Shown here: positions 51,553 through 55,208 of the stretch, piece by piece | Position numbering within the stretch: the first letter of the stretch is position 1 | How the letters are laid out: every line of letters begins with the position of its first letter | DNA from: an uncultured archaeon | GTDB lineage: Archaea > Halobacteriota > Archaeoglobi > Archaeoglobales > Archaeoglobaceae | Length of the DNA: 64,000 bases | Reading direction: 5' to 3' | Assembly: GCA_964534325.1 (NCBI GenBank) | Contig: CAZHOR010000003.1 | Span: forward strand, 16,664 to 80,663 | Translations under genes and position numbers: made by a program | Notes under the pieces: model-generated | Seen by the model: the letters and a program-made list of their open reading frames with translations, nothing else | Databases searched by the model: none | Told to the model about the DNA's origin: nothing

Positions 51553-52707
51553 ATGCCAGAGTTGACCAAACCCGCCTCATCTCTCAGGAAAAAAACTGGA
51601 AAATGGAGAAATTATCGGCCAGTTTTTGACAACTCCAAATGCAAGAGAAATTTTGAGCCGGTGGCTATAGGCAGGCTGGAGAGGTTTGTGGCCGACTGGG
51701 AGCTCCAAAAAGGAGCGGAAATACCTGAAATAAAGGAAAAGACGGGTAAGAAGGTTGCTATAGTCGGTTCAGGGCCTTCGGGCTTGACTTGTGCAGTTGA
51801 TCTGCTGAAGAAGGGTCATGACGTGACCATTTATGAGACATATCACGAGCCGGGTGGTGTTCTGGTCTACGGAATTCCAGAGTTCCGTTTGCCCAAGGAT
51901 ATAGTCCGGAAAGAGGTGGACTACGTCAGAAAAATGGGAGCCAATATAGAAACGGACGTAATAATAGGGAAGACAATGACGGTGGATGAATTGCTTGAAG
52001 AGTACGACGCCGTCTTCCTGGGGACCGGAGCTGGACTTCCTGCCTTTCTCAACATTGAGGGAGAGAATCTGGCTGGTGTTTACTCTGCTAACGAGTATTT
52101 GATCAGGATCAACTTGATGAAAGCCTACAGGTTCCCTGAATATGATACGCCCATAAAAGTGGGTAAGAGGGTGGCTGTTATCGGCGGGGGTAATGTGGCT
52201 ATGGATGCTGCCCGCTGCGCTCTTCGACTGGGTGCTGAGGATGTTTACATCATCTACAGGAGAAGTGAGAAGGAGATGCCTGCCCGTGAGGAGGAGATCG
52301 AGAGGGCTAAAGAGGAAGGCATTCATTTCCTCAATCTAAATGATCCTGTGAGGTTCATTGGTGATGACAGGGTTGAGCAGATAGAGCTGGTGAAGATGCA
52401 GCTGGGAGAGACCGACCCCTCTGGCAGGAGAAGACCTGAACCCATTGAAGGCAGCAATTATTTGATGAACGTGGATCAGGTGGTTATTGCCATTGGTCAG
52501 AAGCCTCATCCCGTCGTTATGCAGACCACCCCCGGTCTGGAAGTAAATGAAAGAAAAGGGACTATCATAGTGAATCAGGAGGGGAAGACCTCCAGGGAAG
52601 GTGTTTATGCTGGTGGTGATGTTGCTACGGGAGCGGCAACGGTCATCTCTGCCATGGGAGCAGGCAGAAAAGCTGCTCAAGCTATAGATAATTTGTTGAG
52701 ATCATGA
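51553..52707 (+). CDS. Chimeric protein: PorD-like N-terminal arm (about 30 aa) fused to the FAD/NAD(P)H-binding body of a GltD/SudA/NfnB-type oxidoreductase, with no Fe-S domain of its own
   Basis: [18 protein letters not shown] (Cys codon 51640-51642), then [65 protein letters not shown] and [24 protein letters not shown]. Confidence 0.8.
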
Positions 52708-53177
52708 AGGAAGAGATCGATTACCAGAAAAATAAGACCATGATGTCTCAGAGGGACCCCAAGGAGAGAGTGAAGGACTTTGAAGAAGTCCCTTTAGGGT
52801 ACTCCAAAAAAGAGGCTAAAAAAGAGGCTCAGCGCTGTTTGCAGTGCATTGAGCCCAGCTGCGTAAAGGGGTGCCCCGTAGAGGTTGACATTCCGGGTTT
52901 TATAAGATGCGTCAGAGAAGATGACCTGGAGGAAGCTTGTAAAGTCCTCAAGGAGGATAACTCTCTCCCCGCTATGTGCGGGAGGGTATGTCCTCAGGAA
53001 GAGCAGTGTGAGTTGACCTGTATGGAGTGCGGGCTCTGCTGGCTATATTGTCCTGACGGGTGTCTGGTCCTGAATGAAGACGGGTTCTTTGAGCCCGATT
53101 ACGATTACTGCAAGGGTTGTGGCATTTGTGCCGAAGTATGTCCCCTTGGTGTCATAAAAATGGAGGTTGAAGTTTGA
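52704..53177 (+). CDS. Chimeric Fe-S protein: GltD/SudA N-terminal cluster domain fused to the ferredoxin body of a 2-oxoacid:ferredoxin oxidoreductase delta subunit
   Basis: [30 protein letters not shown] and [21 protein letters not shown] (Cys codon 53019-53021) run directly into [13 protein letters not shown]...[28 protein letters not shown] overlap with the preceding gene. Confidence 0.8.
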
Positions 53178-54328
53178 TGAGCTATGATGTTCAGGAAGGC
53201 GCTCACTCGGTGGCTGAAGGAGTTGCATTGTGCAGACCACAGATAATACCATCCAATCCCATTATACCTCAGACCCACATCATGGAAAAGTTGGCGTCTC
53301 TTGTCACTGAAGGGAAGCTGGATGCGGATTACATAAATGTGGAATCACAACCATCTGCCCTATCTCTGATGGCAGGTGCTACTGCCTGCGGAGTCCGATC
53401 GTTTACGGCCACTTCATCTCAGGGATTGGCGATAATGCATGAATCACTGCATTCGGTAGCCGGAATGCGCCTGCCTACTCTCATGGTAGTTACGAATAGG
53501 GCTTTGAGCTCTCCCACAAATATCTGGAACGATCATTCGGACTCCATGTCCCAGAGAGATACTTCCTGGATGCAATTTTATGCCGAAACAGTTCAGGAAG
53601 CTTTAGATCTGGTTATTCAGGGCTACAAGATAGCCGAGAGCAGGGATGTCATGCTTCCTGCTATGGTATGCATGGATGGTTATCTGCTCACTCACTCTTA
53701 CGAACCCGTGGATATTCCTAAACAATCAGAGGTTGATGATTTTCTCCCCCCACTCGATTTGGAGTATAAGCTTGATACAGAGAACCCGTTAACTCTGGGC
53801 CCGTTTGCCACCCCGGATGAATATATGGAGTTCAAGTACGGGCAAAAAGAGGCTATGGATAAGGCGAAGGAGAGCATTAAGAGTGTCAATAGGGAATTCG
53901 GGGACAAATTCGGCAGAAGTTACGGAGATGGAATGGTCGAGTGTTACGGTAAGGATTATGACTACGCTCTCATCGCCGCAGGCTCAGTATGCGGGACTGT
54001 TCGGGATGTAGTTGAGGATAGATGCGGATTGATCAGGATACGCTCCTACAGACCCTTCCCCTACCATGAGTTGAAGGAAGCGGTGAAGGGCTTCAATGCT
54101 GTGGGGGTTTTAGACAGGTCTTTCAGCTACGGATTCAACGGTCCACTTTACTCTGAAGTAAGGTCCACTGTGAATGTCCCTGTTAAAGGGTTCATCGCCG
54201 GTCTCGGTGGCAGAAGTATTAGAGTAGAGGACATTGAGCAAATGGTATCCGGGCTGGAGAATTATGATCCGACAGGTGATGAAGACGGTGATGGTGTGGA
54301 GTGGATAAACCTCAAGAGTGAGGAGTGA
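53174..54328 (+). CDS. 2-oxoacid:ferredoxin oxidoreductase alpha subunit
   Basis: IPQTHIMEKLA, FTATSSQGLAIMHESL, RLPTLMVVTNRAL, IRIRSYRPFP, GLGGRSI. Confidence 0.85.
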   Translation: MMSYDVQEGAHSVAEGVALCRPQIIPSNPIIPQTHIMEKLASLVTEGKLDADYINVESQPSALSLMAGATACGVRSFTATSSQGLAIMHESLHSVAGMRLPTLMVVTNRALSSPTNIWNDHSDSMSQRDTSWMQFYAETVQEALDLVIQGYKIAESRDVMLPAMVCMDGYLLTHSYEPVDIPKQSEVDDFLPPLDLEYKLDTENPLTLGPFATPDEYMEFKYGQKEAMDKAKESIKSVNREFGDKFGRSYGDGMVECYGKDYDYALIAAGSVCGTVRDVVEDRCGLIRIRSYRPFPYHELKEAVKGFNAVGVLDRSFSYGFNGPLYSEVRSTVNVPVKGFIAGLGGRSIRVEDIEQMVSGLENYDPTGDEDGDGVEWINLKSEE

Positions 54329-54332
54329 TCAA

Positions 54333-55208
54333 ATGACGGCCGGTTTGCCCCCAGAAGAGTTTTTTGTTTCAGGTCATTCAGCTTGTGCCGGTTGCGGAGA
54401 AGCTCTGGCAGTTAGAGTGGCTATGAAGGCTCTTGGGAAAGATACAATAGTATGTTTACCTACAGGGTGTCTGGAATTCTTCTCCACTCTTTATGGTAGC
54501 TCTGCATGGGAGGTGCCGGTGATAAACCTCTCGGATAACGCTCCGGCGGTGGCCAGCGGCGTGGAGATGGCCTTAAAAAGACTTGGCAAGGACAGTAAAG
54601 TAGTGGTCTTTGCAGGGGACGGGATAACTGCTGATCTGGAGTTGAGCTCGTTATCCGGGATGCTGGAAAGAGGCCACAAGATCATATACATTTGCCTGGA
54701 TAATGAAGCTTATATGGGTACCGGAGCCCAAAAAAGTGGTGGAACACCCTTCGCTGCCCATACATCAACTTCTCCATATGGAGAATCAAGCGGTAATCAA
54801 TTTTATAAGAAAGATTTACCCTCCATCGTTGGCGCCCACAACATCCCATATATCGCCACAGCATCTGTAGCTTACCCCACCGACCTTTACAACAAGGTGT
54901 TGAAAGCTTCACAGCACCAGCCATCTTATATTCAGGTGCACACCCCCTGTCCTACCGGATGGGGCTTCGATAGCTCCAAAACAGTTGAAATAGCCAAACT
55001 TGCTCTGGAAACCTGTATGTGGGTCAACTATGAGATCGTTGATGGCGATTTAAGGGCAACACCAGTTACTAAGAGACCTGTAGAGGATTATATTCAGCTG
55101 CAAGGAAGGTTCAAGCATCTGTTCAAAGGTGATGAGGGGAAAGAGCTTATCGAAAAATTGCAATCAATAGCGGATGAAAATGCACGCCGATATGGTTTGA
55201 CGGAGTAA
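54333..55208 (+). CDS. 2-oxoacid:ferredoxin oxidoreductase beta (TPP-binding) subunit
   Basis: GHSACAGCGE, PTGC, FAGDGITADLELSSLSG, CLDNEAYMGTGAQKSGGTP, HTPCPTGWGF, QGRFKHL. SD GAGGAGTGA precedes ATG 54333. Confidence 0.85.
   Translation: MTAGLPPEEFFVSGHSACAGCGEALAVRVAMKALGKDTIVCLPTGCLEFFSTLYGSSAWEVPVINLSDNAPAVASGVEMALKRLGKDSKVVVFAGDGITADLELSSLSGMLERGHKIIYICLDNEAYMGTGAQKSGGTPFAAHTSTSPYGESSGNQFYKKDLPSIVGAHNIPYIATASVAYPTDLYNKVLKASQHQPSYIQVHTPCPTGWGFDSSKTVEIAKLALETCMWVNYEIVDGDLRATPVTKRPVEDYIQLQGRFKHLFKGDEGKELIEKLQSIADENARRYGLTE

Follow-up and report, generated by a model that had tools for sequence, protein, structure and literature searches.

A reciprocal N-terminal exchange between a PorD-type delta subunit and an NfnB/GltD-type flavoprotein in a 2-oxoacid oxidoreductase operon of Archaeoglobales, probably wired to NADP(H)

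Introduction

In Euglena and Cryptosporidium, pyruvate:NADP+ oxidoreductase (PNO) catalyzes the reaction pyruvate + CoA + NADP+ -> acetyl-CoA + CO2 + NADPH by means of a single-chain bacterial-type PFOR with a built-in NADPH flavoprotein, a cytochrome-P450-reductase-like FMN/FAD domain. Phenylglyoxylate:NAD+ oxidoreductase of Azoarcus/Aromatoleum (PadEFGHI; Hirsch et al. 1998, cited in PMC5109826) is reported to be an OFOR that reduces pyridine nucleotide directly via an extra flavin subunit; PadE is named a gamma subunit by NCBIfam. In dihydropyrimidine dehydrogenase (DPD; PDB 1GT8/1H7W family), electrons pass from the distal N-terminal cluster to a 2x[4Fe-4S] ferredoxin domain, which is C-terminal on the partner chain of the homodimer and feeds an FMN site. 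An NfnB/GltD-type module gives other redox enzymes an integral port for NAD(P)H in formate dehydrogenase fusions (PDB 9BOV, 8OH5), in the NfnA of Nfn-Bfu (9N5U) and in Archaeoglobi ferredoxin-GltD fusions of ~600 aa (P0142-P0146).

The pyruvate:ferredoxin oxidoreductase (PFOR) of M. acetivorans is a four-subunit archaeal enzyme, (alpha-beta-gamma-delta)2, and no described OFOR lacks Domain III (gamma; PMC12337175). The PFOR delta chain in PDB 9BT4 comprises 85 residues. In Nfn, the canonical gene order is nfnA then nfnB (PMC6405883), and Glu126 of the P. furiosus large subunit NfnL is a ligand of the FAD-proximal cluster (PMC9503767). Reported here is an operon in a 64-kb stretch of DNA (the window) in which parts of a PFOR and of Nfn are combined differently; no description of the same architecture was found in the literature, in keeping with a preliminary description of this DNA, in which it was not recognised as described.

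Results

Operon content

The operon occupies positions 51553-55208 of the + strand and consists of ORF A, ORF B and the alpha and beta genes, in that order (Table 1). ORF A and ORF B share an ATGA overlap, read directly in the sequence, and the gap between thiC and ORF A is 12 nt long, with GGTGA before the ORF A ATG. thiC lies likewise upstream in Archaeoglobus veneficus and at two sister loci (L014, L022), and thiC and the operon may share a transcript. No second delta gene is present in the operon, and neither a gamma subunit gene nor an NfnA-like gene was found by tblastn in the whole window; the preliminary description had also listed no gamma subunit. Its coordinates and sequence statements all held when the ORFs, the overlap and the junction codons were re-read.

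Table 1. Coordinates of the operon genes, their upstream neighbour and selected features (positions in the window)
Feature	Position	Strand	Details
thiC, directly upstream; context, outside the enzyme	50170..51540	+	Pfam ThiC_Rad_SAM, E 1e-179
ORF A, P1-G2 hybrid	51553..52707	+	384 aa
P1 arm of ORF A, residues 1-30	51553..51642	+	[11 protein letters not shown]...KC; last residue Cys30
Glu43 of ORF A, in GRLERF motif	51679..51681	+	non-cysteine residue predicted to ligate the FAD-proximal [4Fe-4S] cluster
Nucleotide-binding motifs of ORF A	51766..52266	+	GSGPSG (72-77, FAD), GGGNVA (211-216), YRRS (235-238)
ORF B, G1-P2 hybrid	52704..53177	+	157 aa
G1 cluster ligands of ORF B	52836..53021	+	C45, C48, C53, C57, C96, C102, junction C106; all invariant
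P2 motifs of ORF B	53019..53144	+	C106-x2-C109-x2-C112-x3-C116-P, C136-x2-C139-x2-C142-x3-C146-P; cysteines all invariant
alpha subunit	53174..54328	+	384 aa; POR_N + PFOR_II domains
beta subunit	54318..55208	+	296 aa; TPP-binding, proximal-cluster cysteines, TPP_enzyme_C

Domain boundaries and reconstitution

By profile and structure alignment, ORF A is a PorD-type delta N-terminal arm (P1) joined at Cys30 (codon 51640-51642) to the body of an NfnB/GltD-type flavoprotein (G2), and ORF B the two-cluster domain (Fer4_20) of such a flavoprotein (G1) joined at Cys106 (codon 53019-53021), without a linker, to the remainder of PorD (P2). The flavoprotein model TIGR01316 was matched at positions 97-448 by ORF A residues 30-381 and at positions 2-92 by ORF B residues 19-107, with Fer4_20 (profile positions 1-86 of 113) on ORF B residues 22-107 and Pyr_redox_2 on ORF A residues 66-371; no cluster-binding domain was detected in ORF A by domain scan. 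PorD_Arch was matched at positions 33-84 of 85 by ORF B residues 105-156, and at positions 8-36 (E 4.6e-8) by ORF A residues 1-36 scanned alone. Residues 1-30 of ORF A are thus PorD-like, and their reading as an ordinary GltD N-terminus was rejected.

When the halves were re-joined in silico, both proteins regained single gapless profile matches. The rebuilt delta (A1-30 + B107-157) matched PorD_Arch in one stretch at 116.8 bits, against 69.5 and 33.0 for the separate parts, and scored 110 bits on the subfamily model TIGR02179 (cut-off 60). The rebuilt flavoprotein (B1-106 + A31-384) matched TIGR01316 in one stretch at 589.8 bits, above the cut-off of 471.75, which ORF A alone does not reach (454.6 bits); each rebuilt protein thus passed a curated cut-off, for the delta that of the subfamily model. 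Among structures, the closest to the G halves was T. maritima NfnB (4ylf_B), of which residues 3-101 align to ORF B residues 9-107 and residues 106-459 to ORF A residues 32-382 (E 1e-138), and the closest to the P halves was the PFOR delta chain 9bt4_G, to which the rebuilt delta aligns without gaps (residues 9-83; ORF B residues 105-156 on 32-83). The pattern is far beyond chance. The P1-G2/G1-P2 exchange at one cysteine codon per gene, proposed in the preliminary description together with profile mapping of both ORFs, is borne out by explicit boundaries at Cys30 and Cys106 and by reconstitution.

Cluster ligands and nucleotide-binding motifs

ORF B carries 14 invariant canonical ligand cysteines and two further invariant cysteines, C92 and C120. 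The GRLERF motif of ORF A, whose Glu43 is invariant in 59 sequences, aligns to P. furiosus NfnL residues 118-128, Glu126 included. If Glu126 is taken as a proximal-cluster ligand (PMC9503767), four clusters would need 15 Cys and one Glu; with 14 Cys on ORF B, and Cys30 and Glu43 on ORF A, the two chains would therefore have to share clusters. For the FAD-proximal cluster, the predicted Glu ligand (LERF) lies on ORF A and its three cysteines on ORF B, which strengthens the earlier proposal of an interlocked assembly. On one and the same chain, Cys106 lies three positions from Cys109 and four from Cys102, so an Nfn-type and a delta cluster must be neighbours whichever of them Cys106 serves.

The ORF A segment [11 protein letters not shown] aligns with YRRTEREMPAR of 4ylf_B; its YRRS motif is read as NADPH-type, and the match suggests a preference for NADPH. 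In the monomer model of ORF A the flavoprotein core is confident and residues 1-45 are not (P1 pLDDT below 50), which fits a segment that requires partners; the AlphaFold monomer of ORF B has a mean pLDDT of 44.7, too low for use.

Conservation and operon variants

Identical junctions were found in ~13 protein clusters and 12 loci of Archaeoglobales, including the complete isolate genome of A. veneficus (CP002588). ORF B homologues form 13 clusters with 63-93% identity, and ORF A is 100% identical to P0121. In an exhaustive search of 1.84 billion representatives, the ORF B fusion was confined to one 50%-identity family, with one end-to-end match, and its reading as a common stand-alone polyferredoxin was rejected. 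Frames are intact and selection is strongly purifying (dN/dS 0.02-0.08 overall, 0.02-0.05 for ORF B and ~0.05 for ORF A against L014 and L022). The P1 arm is constrained in the same way (pN 0.06-0.07 vs pS 0.62-0.73), with T15, G16, W18, R19, P23, C30 and K31 invariant in 14 family members.

At the 12 loci, A lies directly upstream of B-alpha-beta or the order is A-nfnA-B-alpha-beta. In many relatives an NfnA/NfnS gene (a true NfnS, 351 bits to 5jca_S) separates A from B and a gamma gene lies upstream, both of which the window version lacks; in some (P0145, L009) NfnS/NfnA is fused to ORF A. The A. veneficus order is gamma, P1-G2, nfnA, G1-P2, alpha, beta, a layout that amounts to a por operon into which an nfnA-nfnB unit, circularly permuted, is set at the cysteine codon. 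NfnA is absent from all four window-type loci (the window, L014, L022, L024) and from both type-2 loci. The split is conserved together with alpha and beta; the lack of gamma, noted in the preliminary description, holds for the window and three sister loci, but gamma lies directly upstream in other family members.

In a tree of the flavoprotein body (G2), canonical GltD-like proteins (457 aa) and ferredoxin fusions (~600 aa) fell among the swapped proteins, which were monophyletic in 0/200 bootstraps; one clean origin can therefore not be assumed. The exchange may have arisen by one reciprocal crossover, at a cysteine codon, between porD and a circular or duplicated flavoprotein gene or genes.

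Alpha and beta subunits

Catalytic motifs are retained in both subunits. Alpha scored 451.9 bits on PorA_Arch (cut-off 550) and beta 360.2 bits on PRK11865 (cut-off 405), each under its cut-off. Beta contains a GDG-x26-N motif (residues 100-129), and its Cys23, 26, 51 and 211 show no variation across 8 family members. In the alpha tree, a 33-member clade with support of 100/100 holds every alpha traced to swapped operons and no ordinary PorA.

Discussion

Comparison with described systems

Joined, the G halves make up a complete NfnB/NfnL, with the Fer4_20 two-cluster domain, the LERF Glu ligand, the FAD and NADPH domains and a passing TIGR01316 score, and relatives of the operon encode a true NfnS. 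Unlike in Nfn, the large subunit breaks at the final cysteine of its cluster domain, its two halves each carry half of a PorD delta, no NfnS gene lies in the window, and the ferredoxin-facing cluster would, by prediction, sit against a delta-subunit cluster rather than meet free ferredoxin; none of the four gene patterns in a 2019 review matches the arrangement (PMC6405883). Shared with archaeal PFOR are the usual alpha/beta domains, the TPP motif and cluster cysteines, the gapless fit of the rebuilt delta on 9bt4_G, the order delta-alpha-beta, and gamma upstream in relatives. Here, however, delta is divided over two polypeptides, gamma is missing from the window, alpha and beta fall under the PorA/PorB equivalog cut-offs in a clade apart from ordinary PorA, and the predicted acceptor is NADP+ via a bound flavoprotein.

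The Pad models match alpha, beta and the delta part of the operon, but far under their cut-offs (PadG 287.8 vs 700, PadI 214.2 vs 700, PadF 77.7 vs 150), and the PadF model spans an entire delta of 78 residues, so that Pad enzymes do not share the swap. PNO catalyzes the reaction proposed here, but its flavoprotein domain is unrelated to NfnB/GltD and it has no swap. In the formate dehydrogenase fusions, Nfn-Bfu NfnA and ferredoxin-GltD fusions, the modules are intact and joined end to end, with no reciprocal exchange of N-termini.

Proposed function and its rivals

The reading favoured here, with somewhat better than even confidence, is a 2-oxoacid oxidoreductase of the pyruvate/2-ketoisovalerate type whose outlet is a built-in NADP(H) flavoprotein instead of free ferredoxin, with A and B interlocked. 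ORF A and ORF B would form an obligate heterodimer, ORF B carrying four [4Fe-4S] sites of which two are completed by Cys30 and Glu43 of ORF A, which would also hold the FAD and NADPH site and dock the flavoprotein onto the alpha/beta core through its PorD-type arm. At the exchange point, the last ligand of the distal, ferredoxin-facing Nfn cluster would meet the first ligand of the delta's first cluster. The first PorD cysteine presumably serves the distal delta cluster, as in the D. africanus PFOR structure; the exchange would then lie at two distal-cluster ligands, and both ferredoxin-docking ends would therefore be fused. Electrons would run from TPP through the beta cluster, the two delta clusters and the two Nfn-type clusters to FAD and NADP+, the most likely reaction here being 2-oxoacid + CoA + NADP+ -> acyl-CoA + CO2 + NADPH. 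As gamma is universal in OFORs yet absent from the window, the enzyme may be incomplete, dependent on gamma in trans or not CoA-using; a CoA-binding gamma borrowed from another operon is proposed.

Nfn-type FAD is tuned for bifurcation, so that its behaviour in an enzyme lacking NfnS may depart from this proposal. One rival, unlikely but with some weight, makes the window enzyme itself a confurcating or bifurcating Nfn-POR complex, joined in trans by NfnS/NfnA and gamma encoded elsewhere and catalyzing pyruvate + CoA + NADH + 2 NADP+ <-> acetyl-CoA + CO2 + NAD+ + 2 NADPH, which in reverse would be an NADPH-driven pyruvate synthase. The G halves are indeed closest to bona fide NfnB/NfnL and retain the Glu ligand, NfnS does occur in sister operons or fused to ORF A, and one MAG holds two paralogous operons, so that subunit sharing is conceivable. 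Against this, the window has no NfnA-like gene, its loss across the window-type and type-2 loci looks stable rather than accidental, and the G2 tree groups the window lineage with 457-aa GltD-like proteins, of which the one with context examined adjoins a Glu_synthase gene without an NfnA neighbour. The earlier suggestion of a possibly bifurcating enzyme thus finds backing in the relatives with NfnS/NfnA between A and B, whereas here that gene is absent.

Improbable, too, is a reading in which ORF B suffices by itself as a four-cluster extended delta feeding free ferredoxin, with ORF A loosely docked or working elsewhere and Cys30 a relic. C92 and C120 could in principle fill the missing position, and a GltD-like family without Fer4_20 exists (PRK12770, matched at 299 bits); but Cys30 and the TGxWR..P arm are invariant within an otherwise variable stretch under purifying selection, and the proximal-cluster Glu sits on the flavoprotein chain in canonical relatives, so that ORF B has no ordinary means of completing that cluster alone. 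Moreover, ORF A has no cluster of its own for receiving electrons, the two genes are translationally coupled, and ORF A, or a type-1 nfnA gene or domain following A, lies upstream of B wherever the contig reaches. That the arrangement is an artefact of assembly or annotation, or that the two genes are decaying pseudogenes, is scarcely credible, given the identical junctions in the complete A. veneficus genome and in metagenomes that several projects assembled independently, the intact frames and the low dN/dS.

DPD shares the Fer4_20 domain, and its relay from there to a ferredoxin domain is a precedent for the one that a single ORF B chain would contain; unlike in DPD, the two domains are fused without a linker and would feed or drain a TPP enzyme. 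In relatives that encode NfnS/NfnA, flavin-based confurcation or bifurcation would link the same wire to NAD(H), and these enzymes are possibly bifurcating. As read from its genes, the enzyme of the window is probably wired straight to NADP(H) rather than to free ferredoxin.

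Exactness of the N-terminal exchange

The first two genes of the operon, ORF A and ORF B, had been read in the preliminary description as a reciprocal N-terminal swap between a GltD-type flavoprotein and the delta ferredoxin of a 2-oxoacid:ferredoxin oxidoreductase (OFOR), with the junction at a cysteine in both genes. Profile boundaries and a rejoining test showed this swap to be residue-exact. The four genes A, B, alpha and beta run in the same direction and are tightly packed, with the stop codon of ORF A and the start codon of ORF B overlapping in ATGA, and base composition is uniform over the operon region.

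Features of the operon and its neighborhood (window coordinates)
Feature	Position	Strand	Size or match
ORF A	51553-52707	+	384 aa
Cys30 codon of ORF A (junction)	51640-51642		
ORF B	52704-53177	+	157 aa
Cys106 codon of ORF B (junction)	53019-53021		
OFOR alpha	53174-54328	+	POR_N E 7.5e-64, PFOR_II E 7.8e-23
OFOR beta	54318-55208	+	TPP_enzyme_C
thiC	50170-51540		thiamine pyrimidine synthase
First short ORF downstream of beta	55229-55423		
Second short ORF downstream of beta	55413-56042		partial Cons_hypoth698 match
MreB/actin-like protein	47014-48804		386 aa, the span also taking in the 202-aa ORF after it
Split archaeal glutamate synthase	15436-18445		GATase (300 aa), GXGXG (223 aa), third gene (477 aa)

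Against NCBIfam profiles, ORF A residues 30-381 corresponded to positions 97-448 of the NfnB/GltA-type model TIGR01316, ORF B residues 19-107 to positions 2-92 of the same model, and ORF B residues 105-156 to positions 33-84 of the 85-position archaeal PorD model. Pfam placed Fer4_20 at residues 22-107 of ORF B (profile 1-86 of 113), followed by a dicluster ferredoxin domain at 105-153, and on ORF A found only the end of Fer4_20 (profile 84-112), followed by Pyr_redox_2. In this domain mapping the boundaries meet at Cys30 and Cys106. Residues 1-36 of ORF A, scanned alone, matched PorD_Arch positions 8-36 (E 4.6e-8) and TIGR02179 (E 6.2e-7), and these matches of the isolated peptide exclude chance similarity as the source of the PorD-like N-terminus.

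The chains were rejoined in silico at both cysteines, giving a delta protein (A1-30 plus B107-157) and a flavoprotein (B1-106 plus A31-384). The rebuilt delta matched PorD_Arch in one stretch at 116.8 bits, the separate parts scoring 69.5 and 33.0, reached 110 bits on TIGR02179 (cut-off 60), and aligned gaplessly to residues 9-83 of the delta subunit of a solved pyruvate:ferredoxin oxidoreductase (9bt4_G). The rebuilt flavoprotein matched TIGR01316 in one stretch at 589.8 bits, above the cut-off of 471.75 that ORF A (454.6) and ORF B (124) each missed. Thermotoga maritima NfnB was the best solved relative of the flavoprotein halves, ORF B 9-107 aligning with its residues 3-101 and ORF A 32-382 with residues 106-459 (E 1.6e-138). 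PorD is defined by an N-terminal arm and two CxxCxxCxxxCP motifs on one polypeptide; here the arm lies on ORF A and the motifs on ORF B, and an end-to-end PorD match was obtained with the rejoined sequence only. Neither ORF is a member of PorD or NfnB as these families are defined, and both families are contained in A and B together.

Conservation and rarity of the hybrid genes

Both hybrid architectures recurred in an ortholog search, that of ORF B in 13 protein clusters (63-93% identity) and that of ORF A in at least 15, one of these coming from the isolate Archaeoglobus veneficus, whose genome is complete. The presence of the same junctions in an isolate genome and in numerous assemblies excludes an assembly chimera. 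A DNA pattern for the ORF B junction found 11 Archaeoglobales-type loci in species-representative genomes, an incomplete census, since the scan missed A. veneficus despite the motif in its ORF B; it also returned about 10 unrelated bacterial loci. At L023 (1809-4786), a locus in a Sedimentisphaerales metagenome-assembled genome (MAG), an ordinary bacterial gamma-delta-alpha-beta operon has a delta that matches C-E-x2-C-x2-C-x2-C-W-x2-C-P through an extra cysteine four residues before its first motif; tblastn found no Fer4_20 part at this locus.

At the DNA level, two of the 11 Archaeoglobales-type loci, one from an uncultured archaeon and one from an Archaeoglobaceae MAG, share 86% and 85% identity with the window operon, which places the window in the Archaeoglobaceae. 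In comparison with these two loci (L014 and L022), ORF A had a dN/dS of 0.05 and ORF B one of 0.02-0.05, and within the PorD arm of ORF A pN was 0.06-0.07 against a pS of 0.62-0.73; both ORFs are strongly held by purifying selection. An exhaustive phmmer search with ORF B gave 8,210 hits among 1.84 billion representatives. One hit covered ORF B end to end, the others in the best 150 of the 8,210 ended at about residue 107, and seeming extensions past that point were truncated or frameshifted fragments of ordinary GltD; the ORF B fusion is therefore one narrow family.

Cluster ligands and predicted interlocking of the chains

In a 14-member alignment, ORF B has 16 invariant cysteines, of which 14 occupy canonical ligand positions: C45, C48, C53, C57, C96, C102 and C106 on the Nfn side, and C106, C109, C112, C116, C136, C139, C142 and C146 on the PorD side, with C106 counted once although it is both the last Nfn and the first PorD position. 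In Pyrococcus furiosus NfnL, Glu126 and three cysteines are the ligands of the proximal cluster (PMC9503767). This glutamate aligns with the LERF motif, which here lies on ORF A, so that the glutamate ligand of the FAD-proximal cluster in NfnB/NfnL (TIGR01316) is shared by the hybrid as Glu43, invariant in 59 sequences. Cys30 is likewise invariant and aligns with the last Fer4_20 cysteine of canonical relatives. Taken with NfnL Glu126, the ligand positions imply that four clusters require 15 cysteines and one glutamate; ORF B supplies 14 cysteines, and Cys30 and Glu43 of ORF A are the exact remainder.

From these alignments at least one cluster is predicted to bridge the chains, with Cys57, Cys96 and Cys102 from ORF B and Glu43 from ORF A as its ligands, and Cys30 is predicted to be a ligand of a second cluster. 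If the ligands are so placed, A and B can only assemble interlocked. Cys109 follows Cys106 at a distance of three residues and Cys102 precedes it at a distance of four, so an Nfn-type and a delta-type cluster must be adjacent whichever of them Cys106 serves. We take the cluster closed by the last Fer4_20 cysteine to be the FAD-distal one, following the ferredoxin-fold rule and the dihydropyrimidine dehydrogenase structure, and the first PorD cysteine is presumably a ligand of the distal, ferredoxin-facing cluster, as in the Desulfovibrio africanus PFOR structure. If both assignments hold, the swap welds two ferredoxin-docking ends together. An AlphaFold2 monomer of ORF A had a confident flavoprotein core and pLDDT below 50 over residues 1-45, as would be expected of a partner-dependent segment; the monomer of ORF B (mean pLDDT 44.7, 14-sequence alignment) was too low in confidence for use.

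Operon layouts among relatives and proposed origin of the exchange

Relatives of the operon fall into three layouts. Type 1 has the order gamma, A, nfnA, B, alpha, beta (A. veneficus, L011, L015, L025), the upstream gamma being confirmed for A. veneficus and L011 only, as the other loci end before its position. Type 2 has gamma, A, B, alpha, beta (L021, L028), and type 3, which includes the window, has thiC, A, B, alpha, beta (also L014, L022, L024). In two further type-1 members (locus L009 and protein P0145) A and nfnA are fused in one chain of about 590-650 aa, and partial loci L019 and L020 belong to the same lineage. In A. veneficus and L011 no nucleotide separates the stop codon of A from the start codon of nfnA (TGAATG), which is compatible with a fission or fusion relation to the fused form. 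The nfnA product scored 351 bits against P. furiosus NfnI-S and 285 bits against T. maritima NfnA, and on these scores nfnA of type 1 is to be regarded as a true small Nfn subunit.

Several observations concern individual loci. In A. veneficus SNP6 the operon with its gamma occupies 9468-14536 of L001 (within 674770-695933 of CP002588, L001 being reversed in strand relative to that record). In L028 (2055-11688) the type-2 operon directly follows the gene cluster of a cytoplasmic [NiFe]-hydrogenase, in which one gene encodes an FlpD/polyferredoxin, another a PyrK-like gamma, and two more the small and large subunits. L011 (JALTHG010000021.1) is binned as a Deltaproteobacteria MAG and encodes type-1 proteins 75-82% identical to those of A. 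veneficus; mis-binning is the probable cause, horizontal transfer being less likely.

The canonical Nfn gene order is nfnA-nfnB (PMC6405883). Type 1 can be read as a por operon (gamma, delta, alpha, beta) in which an insert consisting of the flavoprotein body (G2), nfnA and the Fer4_20 cluster domain (G1) splits the delta gene at its first Cys codon. This insert reads in turn as an nfnA-nfnB unit after circular permutation, with its opening at the last Fer4_20 Cys codon. Both hybrid junctions would result from a single reciprocal crossover of porD with a flavoprotein gene (or genes) in circular or tandemly duplicated form.

All alpha subunits traced to swapped operons grouped in a single clade of 33 members (support 100/100) that is separate from ordinary PorA; within it, type 1 forms one branch (85%) and types 2 and 3 form another (97%). 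Given this clade and the thiC gene upstream in A. veneficus, the simplest view of the window version is that gamma and nfnA were lost from it, or that it never gained nfnA. The G2 tree (bootstrapped neighbor joining, P0121-P0156) differed: swapped proteins were monophyletic in 0 of 200 replicates, canonical 457-aa GltD-like proteins and ferredoxin-GltD fusions of about 600 aa nested with the type-2/3 branch, and the split of type 1 from the group containing types 2 and 3 recurred in 192 of 200. This paraphyly may reflect reversal by excision, exchange with a paralogue, a second swap or a tree artefact, whereas the alpha-subunit tree supports one operon family. Branching in a tree of the G1 cluster domain (86 columns) was without resolution.

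Catalytic subunits and proposed activity

The downstream genes carry the features of alpha and beta subunits of four-subunit OFORs; beta has a GDG-x26-N thiamine pyrophosphate (TPP) motif and invariant proximal-cluster cysteines at 23, 26, 51 and 211. Both fell below the equivalog cut-offs (PorA_Arch 451.9 against 550; PRK11865 PorB 360.2 against 405) and so carry no substrate assignment. ORF A keeps both Rossmann motifs, and an 11-residue segment matches the NADPH-binding T. maritima NfnB. On the alpha and beta motifs together with these nucleotide-binding motifs, we propose with moderate confidence that the window enzyme would act as a 2-oxoacid:NADP+ oxidoreductase, in which five [4Fe-4S] clusters would carry electrons from TPP to FAD and on to NADP+. 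The arrangement given in the preliminary description is confirmed, and its interpretation is supported. For relatives that bear NfnS, the natural reading would be an Nfn welded to a pyruvate oxidoreductase (POR), acting as a confurcating pyruvate oxidoreductase or, in reverse, as an NADPH-driven bifurcating pyruvate synthase.

The preliminary description also asked whether the swapped pair accompanies alpha and beta with gamma absent. Its association with alpha and beta held, and the absence of gamma did so in part: tblastn found no gamma (domain III, CoA binding) in the 64-kb window, and gamma lies upstream in A. veneficus (two gamma genes; operon region L001 8665-14536), L011, L021 and L028. 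Domain III is described as universal in OFORs (PMC12337175). Its absence is for that reason the main weakness of the function proposed for the window version. One MAG (SRP141376_co1_22) holds paralogous operons of type 3 (L014; thiC, no gamma) and type 2 (L021; gamma). In Pyrococcus, gamma is shared by POR and VOR. With such sharing and the two operons in one MAG, gamma may plausibly be supplied to the window enzyme in trans.

The stop codon of thiC lies 12 nt from the start of ORF A, with GGTGA before that start, and this thiamine pyrimidine synthase gene directly precedes those of a TPP-dependent enzyme; thiC also lies upstream in A. veneficus, L014 and L022, and joint transcription of TPP biosynthesis and TPP enzyme genes is possible. 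Directly downstream of beta, the two short ORFs overlap in different frames, the second matching only positions 62-217 of 304 of the Cons_hypoth698 membrane-protein family, and the pair looks like a frameshifted or truncated gene. Elsewhere in the window, the MreB/actin-like protein has a Lys/Glu-rich C-terminal tail with a repeated ETKQKGK unit, and 3' of its gene lies a 202-aa ORF with poly-Ser runs and without a Pfam match.

Relation to known systems and significance

The window also encodes a split archaeal glutamate synthase, whose third gene joins an N-terminal 2x[4Fe-4S] domain to a Glu_synthase domain; no GltD-type small subunit lies beside these genes. A role of ORF A as the GltD of this enzyme was considered; co-residence, with the two 34 kb apart, was the one point found in its favor. 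No Glu_synthase partner adjoins ORF A, its neighbors being thiC and OFOR alpha and beta; in this it differs from canonical GltD as represented by P0141, the sole 457-aa protein whose context was checked, which adjoins a Glu_synthase gene. The NfnAB transhydrogenase has a small subunit with [2Fe-2S] and FAD/NAD domains, which type-1 relatives possess; the window lacks it, tblastn finding no NfnA/NfnS-like gene in its 64 kb.

Phenylglyoxylate:NAD+ oxidoreductase and eukaryotic pyruvate:NADP+ oxidoreductase are precedents for OFORs with built-in pyridine-nucleotide coupling, and dihydropyrimidine dehydrogenase has a relay from Fer4_20 to a ferredoxin domain. The window proteins scored below the NCBIfam cut-offs for Pad (PadF 42.8, or 77.7 for the rebuilt delta, against 150; PadG 287.8 and PadI 214.2, each against 700). 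PadE was rejected as a GltD-like subunit, since NCBIfam names PadE as a gamma subunit. NfnB-like modules also occur fused to other enzymes, and there they are intact. None of the four gene patterns in a review of Nfn is a reciprocal swap (PMC6405883), the swap is absent from a survey of the evolution of flavin-based electron bifurcation, and no description of a reciprocal swap or shared clusters was found in open-access and bioRxiv literature on Nfn, OFOR, PorD, GltD-like proteins, confurcation, phenylglyoxylate and Archaeoglobus. NfnB/GltD, PorD and OFOR alpha and beta are well-known parts; the subunit architecture that they form here is without precedent in that literature.

A bolder proposal, which we consider doubtful, is that the family forms a new flavin-based electron-bifurcating class, clearest in the relatives that keep NfnS, in which an Nfn module and a pyruvate-type oxidoreductase would be joined through shared Fe-S clusters, and whose origin would be one Campbell-type crossover, through which an operon became circularly permuted within a gene belonging to a second operon. 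A. veneficus, a cultured strain with a complete genome and the full version of the operon, makes these proposals directly testable. If they are correct, two unrelated Fe-S proteins that traded N-termini at a ligand cysteine would constitute a new build of redox enzyme, with neither chain complete alone and the clusters at the seam held by both, and the operon would provide a clean natural case of operon-level circular permutation through one reciprocal crossover. Ferredoxin would be bypassed, 2-oxoacid oxidation or CO2 fixation into pyruvate being wired directly to NADP(H), and the NfnS-bearing relatives would be electron-bifurcating pyruvate synthases, which would bear on how autotrophic Archaeoglobi fund the most reducing step of carbon assimilation.
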